Assembly (NCBI GenBank): GCA_934202505.1
Contig: CAKPXW010000002.1
Coordinates: 1 to 41,201, forward strand
Source of the DNA: an uncultured Bacilli bacterium
Lineage (GTDB): Bacteria > Bacillota_I > Bacilli_A > RFN20 > CAG-631
Direction of reading: 5' to 3'
DNA: 41,201 nt
Shown here: one piece after another, positions 9,776-30,677 of the stretch
Position numbering within the stretch: the first letter of the stretch is position 1
Layout: each line of letters starts with the position of its first letter
Translations under genes and position numbers: made by a program
Notes under the pieces: generated by a model
What the model was told of the DNA's origin: nothing
The model's database searches: none
Seen by the model: only the letters and a program-made list of their open reading frames with translations

Positions 9776-9849
9776 AGGGGCATAGTTAAATGGCTTAACA
9801 ACGGTCTCCAAAACCGTCAATCTGGGTTCGATTCCTAGTGCCCCTGCCA
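9776..9849 (+). tRNA. trnW: tRNA-Trp (anticodon CCA), CCA-3' encoded
   Basis: Folded by hand: acceptor AGGGGCA/TGCCCCT, anticodon stem ACGGT/ACCGT with loop CTCCAAA, T-arm CTGGG-TTCGATT-CCTAG, discriminator G, then CCA. Confidence 0.9.
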
Positions 9850-9922
9850 TTAAGAATGCATTAGTTTGATACAGTAAAAATGTATTAAACTTTTTTTATT
9901 TTTACGGGAGTTTGATTCTTAC
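9848..9922 (+). repeat. Left copy of a ~75-bp imperfect direct repeat (candidate attL), abutting the tRNA 3' end
   Basis: CATTAAGAATGCATTAGTTTGATACAGTAAAA... recurs at 13608..13681. The first 33 nt have one mismatch; overall about five-sixths identity by hand alignment. Confidence 0.85.
9863..9898 (+). terminator. Rho-independent terminator of tRNA-Trp (inside the left repeat)
   Basis: AGTTTGATACA / TGTATTAAACT forms an 11-bp stem (one G-T pair) with a 7-nt loop, followed by TTTTTTT. Confidence 0.7.
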
Positions 9923-10000
9923 CGTATGTTCGAACATTCGAACTTTGATACATATAATTTTCATTTTAAATTGTGAATTTTTGAAATTCTATATGCTTAC

Positions 10001-10080
10001 TATTGAACGATTATTTTAACAAATGAACGATTACTGAAACTATTGAACGTTTACTCCAACAATTAAACGATATAAATAGA
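10001..10080 (+). repeat. Four iteron-like direct repeats with exact 20-bp phasing
   Basis: TTGAACGATTA (10003), ATGAACGATTA (10023), TTGAACGTTTA (10043), TTAAACGATAT (10063). Confidence 0.85.
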
Positions 10081-10126
10081 AAATTCTTTATAAGTAAAAA
10101 AAATATGTAATTTTGCAGTTTTATCA

Positions 10127-10154
10127 TTGATTTATTACCAATTTTCGATATAAT
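10127..10154 (+). promoter_or_regulatory. Putative promoter of the AlbA_2-like gene
   Basis: TTGATT (10127..10132), 16-nt spacer, TATAAT (10149..10154). Confidence 0.5.
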
Positions 10155-10182
10155 AAACTTGGTAATAAAAGTTGGTGATAAA

Positions 10183-11580
10183 ATGAAAATTAAAGAAATA
10201 ATTAATGAACTATTGCAATTTTCTAAAGAAAGAGAGTGGTTTGAGTTTAAAGAAAATTGGTTTCAACCTGTCGCTCTTGGAGAATATGTTTCTGCTCTTT
10301 CTAATGCGGCCGCTCTTTTAGGAAAGGACTATGGATATTTTGTATGGGGGATAAATGATGAAACTCATGAAATAGTGGGAACTGATTTTGATTATTACCA
10401 AGACTATAGACATGAGCCATATCAAAACTATCTAAATAGAAATCTCTCTCCACGAATCAAATTTGAGTTTGGTGAAGATGTTATTAATGGAAAAAGAGTT
10501 GTTATTTTAGCCATTGAAGCAGCAAAAGAAATCCCAACTTCATTTAATAAAGTTAGATATATTCGAATTGGGTCATCAAAAGATTCAATGGAAAATAATC
10601 CTAAAAAGGAAAAAGAACTTTTTAAAATACTTGAAAATGGTTATCCAACAATAGTTAATACTGAATCACTATATCAAGATTTAACATTTGAAAAATTGTT
10701 CATGTATTATGGAAGCAAAGGAATAAGTATCAAGCAAGAAACATTTAAAAAAAATCTTCATTTATTAACTCCTGATGGAAAATACAATATAATGGCGCAA
10801 CTTCTTTCTGATAACTCCCAACTACCATTAAGGTTATCAATATTTGAAGGAGAAACAAAAGGATCAAATCTTTATGCTATTAAAGAATTCGGATTTGATT
10901 GCCTTTTATATTCGCTAAAAAATCTTTTAGATTATGGAGATGTTATCAACATAATTCAATCTGATGAAACAAATAGAAAAGAAGAAAGAAAAGAAACGCC
11001 GTTGTTTGACATAAAATCATTCAATGAAGCTATAGTTAATGCGGTTCTTCACAATAAATGGGTTGATGGAAATGAGCCTATGATAACAGTATACTCTAAT
11101 AGAATTGAAATTCTTTCTAGAGGCACAATAGCTCCATCTCAAACATTAGAAGGTTTTTATTTAGGAGAATCAGTGCCTGTAAATGAAAAATTATCAGAAA
11201 TCTTTGCTCAATTAAGAATAAGTGATAAATCTGGAAGAGGAGTTCCAAAAATTGTTGAAAACTATTCTAGAAATGCTTTTGAATTTAGAGACAATTCAAT
11301 AGTAGTTACTATTCCATTTAATTATAATAGAAAAGTTGGTGATAAGGTTGGTAATAAAATTGGTAATAATCCTACAACTAGAAAGCATGGATTAAACTTA
11401 ACAAGGGAAAGAATCATGTCAGAAATGAGACATAATCCAAATATTACTAAAGTCGAACTTGTTATATTATTAGGTATAAGTAATACTGCAGTTGATAATA
11501 ACATAAGATATCTAAGAGAAAATGGCTACATAATTAGAGTTGGCGAAAATAAAAATGGTTACTGGAAAGTTTTAAAATAA
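10183..11580 (+). CDS. AlbA_2/Schlafen-like domain + HATPase_c_4-like + C-terminal winged-HTH protein (often annotated as RecG-like putative transcriptional regulator)
   Basis: EREWFEFKENW near the N-terminus is typical of AlbA_2. The central NAVLHNKW...GRGVPKI resembles the divergent ATPase-like module. The C-terminal ITKVELVILLGISNTAVDNNIRYLRENGYI is a wHTH. ATG at 10183 is preferred over the TTG at 10159. Confidence 0.7.
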   Translation: MKIKEIINELLQFSKEREWFEFKENWFQPVALGEYVSALSNAAALLGKDYGYFVWGINDETHEIVGTDFDYYQDYRHEPYQNYLNRNLSPRIKFEFGEDVINGKRVVILAIEAAKEIPTSFNKVRYIRIGSSKDSMENNPKKEKELFKILENGYPTIVNTESLYQDLTFEKLFMYYGSKGISIKQETFKKNLHLLTPDGKYNIMAQLLSDNSQLPLRLSIFEGETKGSNLYAIKEFGFDCLLYSLKNLLDYGDVINIIQSDETNRKEERKETPLFDIKSFNEAIVNAVLHNKWVDGNEPMITVYSNRIEILSRGTIAPSQTLEGFYLGESVPVNEKLSEIFAQLRISDKSGRGVPKIVENYSRNAFEFRDNSIVVTIPFNYNRKVGDKVGNKIGNNPTTRKHGLNLTRERIMSEMRHNPNITKVELVILLGISNTAVDNNIRYLRENGYIIRVGENKNGYWKVLK

Positions 11581-14901: not shown

Positions 14902-17900
14902 ATGAAAAAATATTTTAAAAAAACAAGTATTGCTATAATAATTGTTATGATGTTCATTTTCGCTATTTTTGGTGGCGAGACAATTACAATTCATACAAAC
15001 GCCGATAATACAAAATATAAAACAGTCGTGAACGCTCAAGGTGTCAAGACAGAAAAAGGGACAAAAGCGACAACGCAAGTAGAATTAGGAAATTATATCA
15101 GCCTTGGTAAGTACAACGGCAAGGATGTAATATGGAGGTGCGTCAGTATTGATGAGAAAGGGTTACTTATGCTTGCCGATAACATAATCGACACACTCCC
15201 TTACGACGCTAAGACCAACGACAACAACCGTTCTAAGTCACACAGCCGCAACAATAATCGTGATAACCGCGGCTCTAACTATTGGAAAGACAGCAATATG
15301 CGTTCTTGGCTCAATTCTACGGCAGTATCAGGCGAAGTGAAGTGGCTATGTGGTAATCCGCCAAGGGCCGGTTATGTAAATGAAAATGCGTATGACCAAA
15401 AAGCCGGTTTTTTGAACGACTTTTCCAAAGCCGAGATTGCCGCAATGAAGAACGTGACCCAGCGCTCTTTGGTATCACACCCTGAGTACAATCATGGATT
15501 TCATGATGGTGATGGTCGCTCTGATTTGGAATTTAATGAGAACATTGAGAACGTTGCCAGTAATTTCAACAGTGCATATGGCGAAAACTCGACCGAAAAG
15601 GTTTTTCTGCTAGACGTCCAACAAGTCAATAGAGTGTGGAAAAATTTCGATAATTATTATATAGGCAGAAAAGAAGGATTTGCTTGGCCTTATTGGCTAA
15701 GGACACCTCTTTCTAGTTGCAACCACCTAATGCGCTATGTGGGCAGCAATGGATTTGTTGGAAAAGATTACCCAACAAATGCTATTGGAGTAAGACCTGC
15801 GTTTTATCTAGATTCAGACTATTATGTAACAACCTCCGGCAATGGCAGTGCAAGCAATCCTTATGTTGGCTCTGCACCTGATAAAATCGAGGACGACTAT
15901 ACCATAGCCGAGTCGGAAGAAGACCCAAATCAAGAATGGGACGTAAGCCTTGACCAACAACTTAAACTTACCCTTGGTCCATACTATTCTAGCGATGGCA
16001 AATATGCCACACCGACTATTCCTATCTATACTATCCAAAAGACAAGAAGTGACACCGAAAATATGGTAATTCTTATTTGTGGCGAGGGTTACACCAAGAG
16101 TCAGCAACAAAAGTTTATCAATGATGCAAAAAAAGTATGGGAAGGAGCAATTCAGTACGAACCATATCGTAGTTATGCCGACCGCTTCAACGTATATGCA
16201 CTTTGTACGGCGTCAGAGTCGAGTTTTAACAATGGTGATAGTACATTTTTTGATGTTGTTATAGATAAAAAGGTTGGGCCGATGATTTCAGTAAATAAAA
16301 GTAGTTGGAAAAACCATATTTTCGAACGCTGTATAGGACCTGCATTCATTGAACAAATTCACGACGCTCATATTCCTAATAAAACTGATCCTGATACATT
16401 TATTTGGGACGATGATAAAATGTACCCGCCATTTTATTATGTGCACAACTATATTAATCAATTTGCTTTGCTAGTCAATACGTCTCAAGATTTTGGTGGT
16501 TCACATAGAAATTATAAACGTGGTATCCATTATTTTATAACCCCAGCCGATAACAATCGTGCGCAAAAGTCTTTTGCACATGAGCTTGGTCACGGGTTGC
16601 TAGAACTTGGCGATGAATATATGACTTCAGCCGCAGAATCAATTGACTATACTTCGCTAAATGTGGCATATAATCACAATCCGGAACAAGTAAAGTGGAA
16701 AAAATTACTAGGGTTTAGAAAAACTTTTACATGCAATACACATCCTTCTTATACTGCTTACAATTCCAGTTGGGAATGCCTTATGCGTGATACCAACTAT
16801 CAGTTCTGTGAAGTATGCAAGTTGCAAGGGTACAAGAGAATGTCGCAACTCATAGATGGCAAAAGCCTCTATGTCGCCGACCCAGAAGTTAAGAAATATA
16901 TAGACAGGTATACTAACCCATCGGACTTTGTGGAAACAAATTACAATGGATATATTAATTTTATAAATTATCGTGAGGGAGTTTTGCTTAGCGGCTGGAA
17001 CAAAAACAAATTCAACACGGGTATGGTAGGTGAGAAAATTCAACTTCGCACCATCGTGCAAAATCTTTCAGACACTACGGAACGCCAAGTTACTATGAAA
17101 TTGTGGATAAAGCATGCCGATGGAAGCGTTGCAACTACAACTAGCGGTCAAATGCTAGAAGCAACACAAACTTTTACTATTCCTGTATGGAGCGAAAAGA
17201 GTAAGTTTTGGCAAAAGGGAGCTTTGGAATATAATGGTAGTGATTTGAATTCTGGATTGGAGAATTGTGAGTTGATTTACCAAATTCCACTAGACGCAGT
17301 GCTAAATAACGGCGACACCGTTGCCTTTGAAGTAACTGACGAAAACGGAAATGTGCTTGCTCACGACAATACCGAAACCCAACCATATGCAAACATTAAT
17401 ATTGAATATAAATTTGAGGACGGAAGTCCAATGCCTAATGCAACTAAAGCCGTAATACCTCTTGCAGTGGGAAGCTATGTTAATTGGACGACTGCTCCAT
17501 CACTTTATGGACATGTACTTAGCAAAGTTGATGGCCTAAATCAAATTGTAAGCGGGAGCGGCCAAACGGTGACGTACTATTATGCCAAAAAAATAGACAC
17601 CCATATTCACGATTGGAGTGATTGGGTAAGCAATGGTAACGGAACGCATACCCGCACTTGTACGAAAGATAGTAGTCATACCGAAACAGCAAATTGTTCG
17701 GGCGGAATGGCCACTTGCACAACAAAAGCGGTTTGTGACGTTTGCAAAACAATGTATGGCGAAACTGCATCTCATAACACAACGCAATATGGCGGAAAAG
17801 ACGGCACGGGACACTGGAATACTTGTTCGACTTGCGATAACAAATTCAACTTTGAAGCACATACTCCTGACAGAGAAAAAGCTGATGAAACCACCCCTGT

Positions 17901-28189: not shown

Positions 28190-28217
28190 AAAGGTTGGGC
28201 GCAATTGCTCAACCTTT
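28190..28217. terminator. Bidirectional terminator between convergent operons
   Basis: AAAGGTTGGGC-GCAATT-GCTCAACCTTT 11-bp stem (one G-T pair) with a T-run after and A-rich sequence before. Confidence 0.7.
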
Positions 28218-29163
28218 ATTTTGTATTTGCAAGATTTAAAACTGGATCTTTTATTTCTTTTATTTTTTCAATGCTTTCTGGAACTAAAACAAGTTCATCT
28301 TCTTGATATTCTTCTGACCATCTAGAAGTAATTTTAGCTTTAATATGCAACCACATACGATCTTTTATTGTAAAAGTGGCATTATCAATCGCTAGATGAC
28401 CATATAATTGAATATCATTACTACAACATGTCATAGCTAAACGTCCGGCAATAAAAGTCTTTTTAGGCAATGATTTTGATAAAACTGCCATACAATTAAA
28501 TTCAACAACTTTATCTATATATTTATCACGATGATCAAATGTATCTATATACCAAATACCATAGTCTTCATCCTTAATGTTAATAACTGGTGCTTCTATG
28601 TCATAAGGTAATTCTATTTCAAAAGCATCTTGTAGTCTACCTTCTTTATCCATTTCCATAAATTGGGCATTACCATTTGTAAGTTTAAAACTACTAGAGT
28701 AAGGTGCAAGTTTATCTAATTCACCATTCACATTAATAAATACAACAACATCTGATTGTTTAATTACATCAAGAAATTGTTGACGCATATTAGCAAAATA
28801 AATTGGAAAAGTTTTAAAATTTATAAAGTTAATCATTTGATAAACTTTAAAGAACTCAGGAAATTGGATTAATTTTAAATCCCACATACCATTAAGTTCA
28901 ATTACAATTCTACTTGGCATTTTATCAATAACTAATTCTTGAAGTTTCAACACAGAGAACTCACTTTGATCTTCAAAATATACCACTTCTGAATTATATT
29001 TTTTTAGGAATTCTTCTTCGTATTCTACTTCGCCTTGTTCACAAGCAAGAATTAAAGTTTTACCTTTTTTATAAAAATCATCACCAGCAATTGTATCTTT
29101 TATAAATGTTGTTTTCCCAGATTCTAGTAAACCATCTATAACATAAATAGGTAATGTTTTCAT
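28216..29163 (-). CDS. G3E-like P-loop protein fused to a Cys-containing C-terminal domain (DUF1980/YcgQ-C-like)
   Basis: Walker A GLLESGKTT but no CxCC motif. The C-terminal GRLAMTCCSNDIQLYG resembles the CCxxD motif of TIGR03943/DUF1980 proteins. Confidence 0.55.
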   Translation of the reverse strand: MKTLPIYVIDGLLESGKTTFIKDTIAGDDFYKKGKTLILACEQGEVEYEEEFLKKYNSEVVYFEDQSEFSVLKLQELVIDKMPSRIVIELNGMWDLKLIQFPEFFKVYQMINFINFKTFPIYFANMRQQFLDVIKQSDVVVFINVNGELDKLAPYSSSFKLTNGNAQFMEMDKEGRLQDAFEIELPYDIEAPVINIKDEDYGIWYIDTFDHRDKYIDKVVEFNCMAVLSKSLPKKTFIAGRLAMTCCSNDIQLYGHLAIDNATFTIKDRMWLHIKAKITSRWSEEYQEDELVLVPESIEKIKEIKDPVLNLANTK

Positions 29164-29164
29164 A

Positions 29165-30382
29165 TTATCCTCTATTGAAGAATAATTCTTCTATCTTATG
29201 TTCATCAATTTTTGAACCAATTACTACAATTCTTCCTGTATAGTCAGGTTCTCCTAAACGAATTTCGTAGTCTCCAACAACATAATCAAAGTAATACCAT
29301 TTTTCATTGTCACTTGCTTTTAAAATTCCTTTTGAACGTAAAATTATTCCAAGAGATTCATCAGTTGCTAATGTATTTAAGAATTTTTCAAGTTGTTCTT
29401 TACTTATAGAAACAGATGTTTCTTTACCCCAACTTGTAAATACTTCATCGGCATCATGACCATGGTGATGATGATGTTCATGACCTTCTTCATGATGATG
29501 ATGGCAGCAACATTCATCGTCATGATCATCTTCATGTTCTTCTTCATGATGATGGTGACAACAACATCCATCGTCATGATCATCTTCATGTTCTTCTTCA
29601 TGATGGTGATGACAACAACATCCATCGTCATGATCATCTTCATGTTCTTCTTCATGATGATGATGACAACAACATTCATCATCGTGATCATCTTCATGTT
29701 CTTCTTCATGATGATGATGACAACAACATTCATCATCGTGATTATGTTTATGTTCTTCTATCATTTGTTGAAGCATTTCATCTTTTAAAGATACTTTTTC
29801 TTCTAAAACAGCTAATAATTTATTTCCATCTAATTGAGAAATTGGTGTTGTTATTATATTAGCGTGATCATTCTTTTCTTTTATTAAATCAACAACTTCT
29901 TGGATTTTTTCTTCAGTTGTTTTATCAGATTTTGATACTACAATAGTATTTGCGGCTTCTATTTGATTATTAAAGAATTCGCCAAAATTTTTCATATACA
30001 TTTTTGCTTTTGGCCCATCAACAACTGTAGCAATAATATTTAATTTTAAATCAGCATCTACTTTTAAAACAGCATTAACAATATCTGATAATTTTCCAAC
30101 TCCTGATGGTTCAATAATTATTCTTTCAGGATTAAATTTATTAATAACTTCTTTCATAGAAGATTCAAAATCTCCTACCAAAGAGCAACAAATACAACCA
30201 GAATTTATTTCTTTAATATTAACTCCTGATTCCTTTAAAAAGGTTCCATCTATTCCTATTTCTCCAAATTCATTTTCAATCAAAACAACTTTTTCTTTTT
30301 TAAAAGAACTTTCAAATAGTTTTTTAATAAGTGTTGTTTTCCCAGCTCCTAAAAAGCCTGAAATAACATCTACTTTTATCAT
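29165..30382 (-). CDS. COG0523 (CobW/ZigA/ZagA-type) G3E metallochaperone GTPase with an expanded Cys/His repeat linker
   Basis: GFLGAGKTT Walker A, GCICCS metal motif, EPSGVG, CobW_C-like C-terminus, and five HDDECCCHHHHEEEHEDD repeats in between. Confidence 0.85.
   Translation of the reverse strand: MIKVDVISGFLGAGKTTLIKKLFESSFKKEKVVLIENEFGEIGIDGTFLKESGVNIKEINSGCICCSLVGDFESSMKEVINKFNPERIIIEPSGVGKLSDIVNAVLKVDADLKLNIIATVVDGPKAKMYMKNFGEFFNNQIEAANTIVVSKSDKTTEEKIQEVVDLIKEKNDHANIITTPISQLDGNKLLAVLEEKVSLKDEMLQQMIEEHKHNHDDECCCHHHHEEEHEDDHDDECCCHHHHEEEHEDDHDDGCCCHHHHEEEHEDDHDDGCCCHHHHEEEHEDDHDDECCCHHHHEEGHEHHHHHGHDADEVFTSWGKETSVSISKEQLEKFLNTLATDESLGIILRSKGILKASDNEKWYYFDYVVGDYEIRLGEPDYTGRIVVIGSKIDEHKIEELFFNRG
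29479..29757 (-). repeat. About five tandem copies of a 54-bp coding repeat
   Basis: Plus-strand unit CATCGTCATGATCATCTTCATGTTCTTCTTCATGATGATGGTGACAACAACATC repeats head-to-tail from about 29515, with only a few substitutions per copy. Confidence 0.9.
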
Positions 30383-30677
30383 ATTATCCTCTCCTTTTTG
30401 ACTAAACTATATTGTACCACATTTTTTTAAATGTTAACATTCTTAAAAATATTATTTTTAACAATTTAATTTATGATTGTCACTTAAATTGATACCATTG
30501 TGGGACACTTATTATCTTTTTTTAGTAAAAATATAATATTTGTGGGACAAAAATGCTATTTTAATTGAAAAATCGTTTTAAATTTGCATTTTTTTTGATA
30601 TAATTAATGTAGTTTAAGAAATTGAAAAAAAATTTCTTTATTTTAAAATATGTAAACAAAAATAGGAGGAAAATAAA

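Follow-up and report, generated by a model that had tools for sequence, protein, structure and literature searches.

What would a GTPase of the COG0523 family gain from five nearly identical blocks of cysteines and histidines placed between its two folded domains? The question is raised by a gene of an uncultured Bacilli bacterium, here called P1, which encodes a G3E GTPase of 405 amino acids (aa) at positions 29165..30382 on the minus strand of a 41,201-nucleotide (nt) stretch of contig CAKPXW010000002.1 (assembly GCA_934202505.1; hereafter the window), as identified from the list of open reading frames (ORFs) and by Pfam. COG0523 proteins are central to zinc allocation under host-imposed starvation, and their linkers and partners are poorly understood; to our knowledge, nearly all members that have been characterised are from aerobes and proteobacteria. 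We lean towards the view that P1 is a GTP-dependent metallochaperone in which a disordered, copy-number-variable tether for several ions feeds the CxCC site of the GTPase (G) domain, and that it acts together with P2, the product of the gene that follows.

The array lies where an earlier note on this DNA, made from the sequence alone, had placed it, between the G domain (aa 1-198; 29789..30382, minus strand; Pfam cobW) and the CobW_C domain (aa 316-401; 29180..29437, minus strand). The inter-domain linker comprises 105 aa (aa 209-313; 29444..29758, minus strand), of which 38 are His, 15 Cys, 25 Glu and 20 Asp, and AlphaFold2 predicts it to be disordered, with a predicted local distance difference test (pLDDT) value of ~30, between two domains that fold confidently. 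Within it, five in-frame, head-to-tail units of 54 bp, each encoding HDD[E/G]CCCHHHHEEEHEDD, occupy aa 215-304 (gene nt 643-912; 29471..29740, minus strand) and run into a terminal His run, HEHHHHHGHD (aa 301-310; 29453..29482, minus strand), whose H307 and H309 are invariant in our alignment of P1 homologues (alignment A1). Tandem Repeats Finder reports the array at 29461-29764 with a period of 54, 5.6 copies, 92% matches and a score of 466, which no other array in the window comes close to; together with the unit listing, this bears out the description of five 18-aa Cys/His units followed by the His run. Units 1 and 2 are identical across all 108 bp, which supports the recent expansion suggested earlier, and units 3 and 4 are two synonymous His codons apart. 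Unit 5 has a degenerate end (EEGHEHH) that merges into HHHGHD and also carries a GAA>GGT and two GAT>CAT changes. The differences between units are mostly synonymous, consisting of CAT/CAC, GAT/GAC and TGT/TGC wobbles besides a GAA/GGA (Glu/Gly) exchange, and across the five units they spare every Cys and every His. Two further ORFs over the array, 29393-29788 (plus strand, 131 aa) and 29404-29736 (minus strand, 110 aa), were rejected as genes, as they are by-products of the repeats in other frames. The products of such frames are rich in Met/Phe/Ile/Thr or in Met/Val/Ile/Lys, and similar antisense ORFs are found at many related loci.

The folded parts of P1 have the features of a COG0523 protein. 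Pfam detects cobW (PF02492) at aa 4-177 (5.3e-37, 127.6 bits against a cut-off of 20.7) and CobW_C (PF07683) at aa 316-401 (7.4e-10, 39 bits against a cut-off of 22). The Walker A/G1 motif GFLGAGKTT (aa 9-17; 30332..30358, minus strand) and the CxCC site GCICCS (aa 62-67; 30182..30199, minus strand) are both invariant in alignment A1, as are R349, K351 and G352 of the RSKG motif in the CobW_C domain (aa 349-352; 29327-29338, minus strand). N(G/S)CxCC between G2 and G3 is the motif that defines COG0523 (PMC11672702), and P1 reads NSGCICCS at aa 60-67; the RxKG of COG0523 proteins has been described as an arginine-finger motif (PMC13001444). At the G4 position, P1 has SKSD (aa 150-153) in place of NKxD and its relatives have NKVD, SKTD or SKVD, with K151 invariant and D153 nearly so in alignment A1. 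Judged by its motifs, P1 is thus a COG0523 member with Walker A, CxCC, CobW_C and RxKG all in place, the SKSD of G4 aside, and the original assignment, which rested on GFLGAGKTT, GCICCS and a CobW_C-like domain, holds with the two Pfam matches added. The closest solved structure to the G domain by sequence is YjiA (1.5e-17). The nearest clade is ~75% identical in the G domain, and the nearest named relatives come from metagenome-assembled genomes labelled Candidatus Caccosoma, 'Bacilli bacterium' and 'Erysipelotrichaceae bacterium'.

The number of cassettes varies among very close relatives. A 66-kb contig from another sample (L001) is 99.85-99.95% identical to the window across 21 kb, and its copy of P1 has zero mismatches in the 642 nt preceding the array and in the last 300 nt compared. 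It carries four cassettes, each identical to a unit of the window, one of the two identical 54-bp units being gone. A 97% relative (L002) carries three. When the 120 best homologues were grouped at 97% identity or more of their non-linker parts, 13 lineages resulted, and the number of Cys motifs varies inside every one of them, with an overall range of 3 to 9. The length polymorphism that the array had been suspected to show is therefore supported, both by the series of five, four and three units and by the variation within lineages. All of these copy numbers come from short-read assemblies.

A Cys/His repeat linker is, moreover, a family-wide trait of a subfamily within the Bacillota, which the earlier note missed. 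Among the closest homologues (~75% identical in the G domain), CC or CCC occurs within His/Asp/Glu repeats in 120 of 120, although the units themselves differ, as in CCCGHHHEHEHHHHDEE, CCCHHDHEHHHDDDDE and CCHHHHHDEEDEDEHE. We extended the survey to 162 loci of species-representative genomes and metagenomes, with relatives that are 41-76% identical and hosts that include Lachnospiraceae, Oscillospiraceae, Blautia, Anaerostipes, Flavonifractor, Christensenellaceae and Erysipelotrichaceae. At least two Cys are found in 157 of 161 homologous His/Asp/Glu linkers. The Cys triplet itself, for which a survey of homologues had been proposed, recurs in 42 of these linkers, while 33 have CC and 80 have CxC. 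Per linker, the median is 6 for Cys and 30 for His, and 95% of residues belong to the set C, H, D, E and G; with 15 Cys, the linker of the window stands at the upper end of the distribution. In-frame tandem repeats with periods of 18-150 nt are present in 140 of the 162 genes, and both unit and period depend on the lineage. The composition is kept across lineages that are merely 41-53% identical, higher-GC Clostridia included. Linker composition is thus conserved but sequence, period and length are not, which is what one would expect if selection acts on the content of ligands while slippage goes on continually. The P1 subfamily is confined to anaerobic gut and rumen Bacillota, and a Cys-rich linker limited to strict anaerobes would fit the need to keep vicinal thiols reduced. 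COG0523 as a whole has 17,021 representatives at E <= 1e-3. His stretches are present in ~40% of COG0523 proteins (PMC2770081); in the literature that we searched, we found no description of Cys-rich or tandem-repeat COG0523 linkers.

P1 also has a constant partner. P2 (28216..29163, minus strand) encodes a protein of 315 aa whose ATG lies 1 nt past the P1 stop codon and whose ribosome-binding site (RBS) falls within the final P1 codons; P1 has its own RBS, GGAGAGG, 7 nt 5' of its ATG. The N-terminal half of P2 contains the G3E P-loop motifs GLLESGKT (29110-29133, minus strand), ExG and ELNG, and Pfam matches P2 to cobW (6.8e-6) and, more strongly, to DUF1980_C (PF21537; 7e-16, 58.6 bits against a cut-off of 25.9). 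Comparison of alignment A1 with A2, the corresponding alignment for P2, by hhalign gives a probability of 99.2 with 24% identity over 164 columns, and the seven residues that bear the CxCC are deleted in P2. By this comparison of sequences, the N-terminal half of P2 is a paralogue of the P1 G domain that has no CxCC. The AlphaFold2 model of P2 has a pLDDT of 88.5, and its N-terminal half is matched by Foldseek to HypB (top) and YjiA. The C-terminal half is predicted to form a run of beta-strands, and just one Foldseek match is of comparable size, a weak hit on an all-beta subunit; among solved structures, no sequence relative of P2 was found. Within the DUF1980_C domain lies CCSND, a CC-x2-D motif (aa 246-250; 28414..28428, minus strand), in which C246, C247 and D250 do not vary among 29 sequences and which aligns with WCCVAD of a membrane-anchored DUF1980 protein encoded at a related locus (L164). 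A P2 homologue lies directly 3' of P1 at 134 of the 136 loci with enough sequence and is slightly displaced at the other two. Among cultured bacteria, both genes are carried by Anaerostipes faecalis AGMB03513, Blautia sp. MSJ-9, Cuneatibacter caecimuris DSM 29486, Petralouisia muris and Bengtsoniella intestinalis BP47G. The pairing, which the earlier note also missed, is thus obligatory and translationally coupled. Beyond the pair, the flanks are variable, unrelated housekeeping genes (ABC exporter, Pth, Mfd, L20, PurA, peptidase M29). We take the two-gene operon P1-P2 as the functional unit. In the literature, we found nothing on the function of DUF1980 or TIGR03943: DUF1980 appears in a single irrelevant table entry and TIGR03943 nowhere.

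Rare architectures tie the pair to zinc import and to a Fur-family regulator in some lineages. Genes of the znuABC type adjoin P1 at three of 164 loci. At L162, the order is znuA, znuC, znuB, P1, P2, and the ZnuA has an acidic His-containing loop ahead of DEHIWTSP, as is typical of zinc-specific binding proteins. At L129, znuB is followed by P1. The third locus, L164:145-5994 (JGI 3300040755), has the order znuA, znuC, znuB, a single ORF in which a Fur-family domain is fused to COG0523 (P0390), an ORF in which an ArsP_1 permease is fused to a P2-type, CxCC-less G domain, and last the membrane-anchored DUF1980 protein with its CC-x2-D. No ArsP_1 homologue was found in the window or at the 163 other loci. 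This arrangement suggests that L164 encodes a Zur/Znu-linked permease system related to the soluble P2, and that the domains of P2 correspond to the cytoplasmic parts of an ArsP_1/DUF1980 permease system, here united in one soluble protein. In another relative, P0335 (L163:169-2767; G domain 56% identical), two HMA domains stand in the linker beside a shorter Cys/His run and the P2 partner is kept. The linker position therefore accommodates dedicated metal-binding domains.

Based on these observations, we propose that the linker would function as an intrinsically disordered, metal-binding tether composed of tandem Cys3-His4-acidic cassettes, which would evolve through in-frame gain and loss of 54-bp units. 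The cassettes may capture several divalent ions, by our estimate 1-2 per cassette or ~5-10 per protein, a figure based on the analogy with Hpn, in which a monomer containing 28 His and 4 Cys takes up 5 Ni. The tether would hold the captured ions as a local buffer beside the high-affinity CxCC of the G domain, from which they might be released to a client in the GTPase cycle, gated or activated by the arginine finger, RSKG, of the CobW_C domain, with cassette number setting the capacity. In this process, P1 would work with the translationally coupled P2, the CxCC-less G3E paralogue with its DUF1980_C domain and CCxxD. Metal binding, its stoichiometry, the identity of the metal, the interaction of P1 with P2 and the direction of transfer are what we infer. 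A role of the linker in storage or buffering is plausible by analogy, and the idea already has a precedent, as the His-rich region of CobW2 was proposed to be a zinc store. The physiological metal is most likely zinc, which we favour because of the synteny with znuABC, found at only three of 164 loci.

Several observations weigh against the proposed zinc-buffering chaperone. P1 falls below the cut-offs of the NCBIfam equivalogs for ZigA (NF038288; 71.9 against 600), CobW (TIGR02475; 82 bits against 332.1) and YjiA/YeiR (PRK11537; 88.5 against 361). Zur control, which the earlier note had given as established for the family and for which it could recognise no box, is unsupported here: a search with the Bacillus-type consensus TCGTAATNATTACGA, allowing up to 3 mismatches, found no Zur box 5' of P1 in the window or 5' of its homologue at any of 154 related loci. 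Elsewhere in the window, the consensus has four matches with 3 mismatches, as many as chance would give. Being below the equivalog cut-offs and lacking a Zur box, P1 should not be assigned to any named COG0523 subfamily. A search for palindromes and shared 8-mers in 132 non-redundant upstream regions returned RBS, -35 and -10 signals alone and no shared operator, and Rfam detects no riboswitch, either in the whole window at the gathering threshold or in the leader at a permissive one. The adjacency of znuABC is limited to the three loci above and the flanks are otherwise not conserved, the Cys triplets would also suit Ni, Co, Cd or Cu(I), and the copy numbers rest on short-read assemblies of a kind that demonstrably mis-join at His-coding repeats.

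The last point bears on whether the window really encodes five units. The count of five may be an artefact of the assembler, which either created the duplication of units 1 and 2 or collapsed it in the four-unit L001, while the array itself is real; we consider this somewhat unlikely. The window and L001 differ in the array by that single perfect unit alone, and many relatives are truncated at the linker or chimeric. For instance, a recognisable C-terminal domain is absent from 129 of the 150 best 50%-cluster G-domain representatives, and among the 23 longest representatives inspected there are many chimeras in which a His-coding repeat runs into other or out-of-frame sequence. Read by eye, the partner sequences resemble the portion that follows the His-rich loop in ZnuA-like, LarC-like or Ni/Co-efflux-like proteins, and the chimeras are probably assembly mis-joins at low-complexity CAT/GAT repeats. 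Database proteins of this kind include P0246, P0257, P0262-P0264 and P0266. However, 108 bp is within the span of ordinary 150-bp reads, differing cassette numbers recur across many independent samples and lineages, and the units bear distinguishing substitutions. On the earlier concern that the repeats might be produced by assembly, the existence of the array is secure but the exact count of five is not, as a perfect 108-bp duplication may collapse or expand. In practice, Cys/His repeats of this type break or mis-join metagenome assemblies and so give rise to chimeric proteins in databases.

With the existence of the array secure, the next question is which metal it would serve. The same composition could belong to a nickel or cobalt reservoir and insertase, comparable to Hpn, HspA and the tails of HypB and SlyD, that supplies hydrogenase, carbon monoxide dehydrogenase, urease, LarA or corrinoid enzymes. 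Hpn, a Ni-binding reservoir, is likewise rich in His, contains CC pairs and takes up 5 Ni per monomer (PMC4671568). The paralogous P2 G domain finds its best structural match in HypB, and models of the CobW family and of the zinc families score P1 about equally. P1 is nevertheless below the equivalog cut-offs of CobW and HypB, and at the 164 loci no gene for a Ni/Co enzyme, a Ni/Co transporter or NikR recurs beside the pair, the metal-specific neighbours being limited to importers of the znuABC type, a ZnuA that bears a His/acid loop, and a domain of the Fur family. We therefore regard a nickel or cobalt function as unlikely.

Rather than feeding a client, the array might simply trap soft metals that are present in excess (Cd, Cu(I), Zn) inside the cytoplasm, in the manner of a metallothionein, as would be compatible with 15 Cys in triplets and 38 His in one linker, with the HMA domains, typical of Cu/Cd handling, in the linker of P0335 and with an ArsR/HMA/P1B-ATPase efflux operon ~5 kb away in the window. 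A passive sink would have no need of a full chaperone GTPase in which CxCC and RxKG are conserved, however; the efflux operon is not adjacent to the pair, the flanks at other loci are not conserved, and searches for operators and with Rfam found no metal-excess sensor site upstream. Detoxification of this kind is quite unlikely in our judgement. That the linker is a neutral, slippage-prone, low-complexity spacer whose Cys and His are by-products of CAT/TGT-rich DNA in an AT-rich genome is very unlikely, for although its length and unit sequence are highly variable, its disorder is predicted and the linker of MigC was reported not to be conserved (PMC13001444), the 95% content of C, H, D, E and G and the Cys of 157 of 161 linkers persist across lineages that are 41-53% identical, including higher-GC Clostridia, the differences between units touch no Cys or His, and HMA domains have entered the linker of one relative beside a shorter Cys/His run.

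The metallochaperone with a multi-ion tether thus remains our preferred reading, and it can be extended, with considerable reserve, to a broader proposal. P1 and P2 may constitute an undescribed, soluble two-protein metal-trafficking system of anaerobic gut Bacillota that is tied in evolution to a Zur/Znu-linked ArsP_1 and DUF1980 permease, and the array may serve as a slippage-tuned reservoir, a contingency locus that adjusts metal buffering to the supply in the host gut while the anoxic lifestyle keeps the thiols reduced. The evolutionary tie is drawn because L164 attaches the same two domains found in P2 to the permease and to its membrane partner. The locus marks out a subfamily that occurs widely among gut Clostridia, Erysipelotrichales-like Bacilli and their relatives. 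If our preferred reading is right, it would give a first functional handle on DUF1980 and on ArsP_1/DUF1980 permeases, the cassettes would offer a natural series from 3 to 9 with which linker capacity could be related to metal delivery, and cassette number might be a strain-level marker of adaptation to the availability of metals in the gut.

The leader of P1 contains a promoter-like element that was found by reading (30411..30441, minus strand), in which TTAACA (30432-30437) is separated by a 15-nt spacer from an extended -10, TGgTACAAT (30411-30419). It may be the P1 promoter; a consensus scan did not list it, owing to the short spacer. A perfect 12-bp palindrome, AATGTTAACATT, lies over the -35-like hexamer (30430-30441, minus strand). 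It was rejected as an operator, as it is neither enriched in the window nor common to related loci, and inspection of the upstream regions in the closest clade revealed no common operator. Another related locus (L068) has TTTAACTTTTGTTAAA at a similar position. At the other end of the pair, a terminator scan found a GC-rich hairpin (28190..28217) between the convergent P2 and TM1506 genes. On the minus strand, it is followed by TTATTATA, and it is likely to be a bidirectional terminator that ends the P1-P2 operon.

Neighbouring genes were rejected as a clue to the client of P1, because the flanks are variable and of the housekeeping type. A Peptidase_M29 metallo-aminopeptidase gene stands directly 5' of the pair on the same strand at L054, L076, L079 and L081; its product is a possible client candidate, far from universal. 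In the window, there is no clustering of P1 with znuABC, zur or a low-zinc paralogue, and cobalamin genes are found neither in the window nor in the recurrent flanks. The efflux operon of the window (21807-24376, plus strand) encodes a regulator of the ArsR/SmtB type (HTH_5), an HMA protein of 69 aa and a P1B-type ATPase, an annotation carried over from the 99.9%-identical L001. The divergent neighbour of P1 (30678-31439, plus strand) encodes a protein of 253 aa with DUF1508 (YegP-like) repeats and is also present in L001. Further away, a gene at 14902-18948 (plus strand) encodes a protein of 1348 aa with Peptidase_M64 (IgA peptidase), DUF6273 and InlB B-repeat-like domains; the G+C content of this segment is 0.34-0.40, compared with 0.24-0.30 in the rest of the window, and it may have been acquired horizontally. 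A tRNA-Trp gene (9776-9849) is followed by a 20-bp repeat that is present in ~3.5 copies (10002-10071; region 9776-10160), has ATTGAACGATTACT as its core and lies 5' of a Schlafen/AlbA_2 and HATPase_c_4 gene (10159-11580). This repeat may be an array of operators or iterons, or it may mark an island boundary.

Among known systems, the direct precedent for the P1 linker is CobW2 of Cupriavidus metallidurans, a COG0523 protein with an internal region rich in His. This region, for which a random coil is predicted, binds ~7 Zn and has been proposed as a zinc store or buffer (PMC11340326). CobW2 is, however, regulated by Zur and described as His-rich only, whereas P1 has Cys triplets and no Zur box, and neither tandem repeats nor copy-number variation nor a DUF1980_C partner has been reported for CobW2, in contrast to the perfect tandem units of P1.

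ZigA, ZagA (YciC), YeiR, YjiA and ZNG1 share with P1 the Walker A motif, the CxCC, a CobW_C domain with RxKG and a variable linker, and YjiA is the only relative with a solved structure. P1 differs from them in scoring far under the equivalog cut-offs, in its lack of a Zur box, in its Cys-rich repetitive linker and in its obligatory G3E/DUF1980_C partner. The likeness to Hpn and Hpn-2 of gastric Helicobacter, and to HspA and the tails of HypB, SlyD and UreE, is compositional only. These are short, low-complexity and fast-evolving sequences dominated by His, with CC pairs, and they bind several Ni(II) ions as a reservoir (PMC4671568). Hpn stands alone at ~60 aa and has no homology to P1, while the array of P1 is an internal linker of a 405-aa enzyme, its regular cassettes of 18 aa each contain a Cys triplet and the metal likely differs.

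For P2, the comparison is with TIGR03943 (DUF1980), which forms a two-component permease with ArsP_1 (COG0701), as the C-terminal 120 aa of P2 match DUF1980_C with the invariant CC-x2-D. P2 nevertheless scores 55.1 against a cut-off of 88.8, with just profile positions 90-220 matching, and has neither a membrane segment nor an adjacent permease, its N-terminus being instead a soluble G3E fold. Bacterial metallothioneins of the SmtA type, like the array of P1, cluster Cys and His ligands, with which they hold several Zn or Cd ions, but they are small folded cluster proteins, unlike acidic disordered repeats inside an enzyme, and have no relationship to P1 in sequence or fold. Relative to these systems, the Cys-triplet chemistry of the cassettes and their regular, hypervariable tandem-repeat construction are new, as are the recognition of the array as the hallmark of a P1/P2 module that is widespread among gut anaerobes and uncharacterised, and the link of this module to DUF1980 and ArsP_1 permeases.

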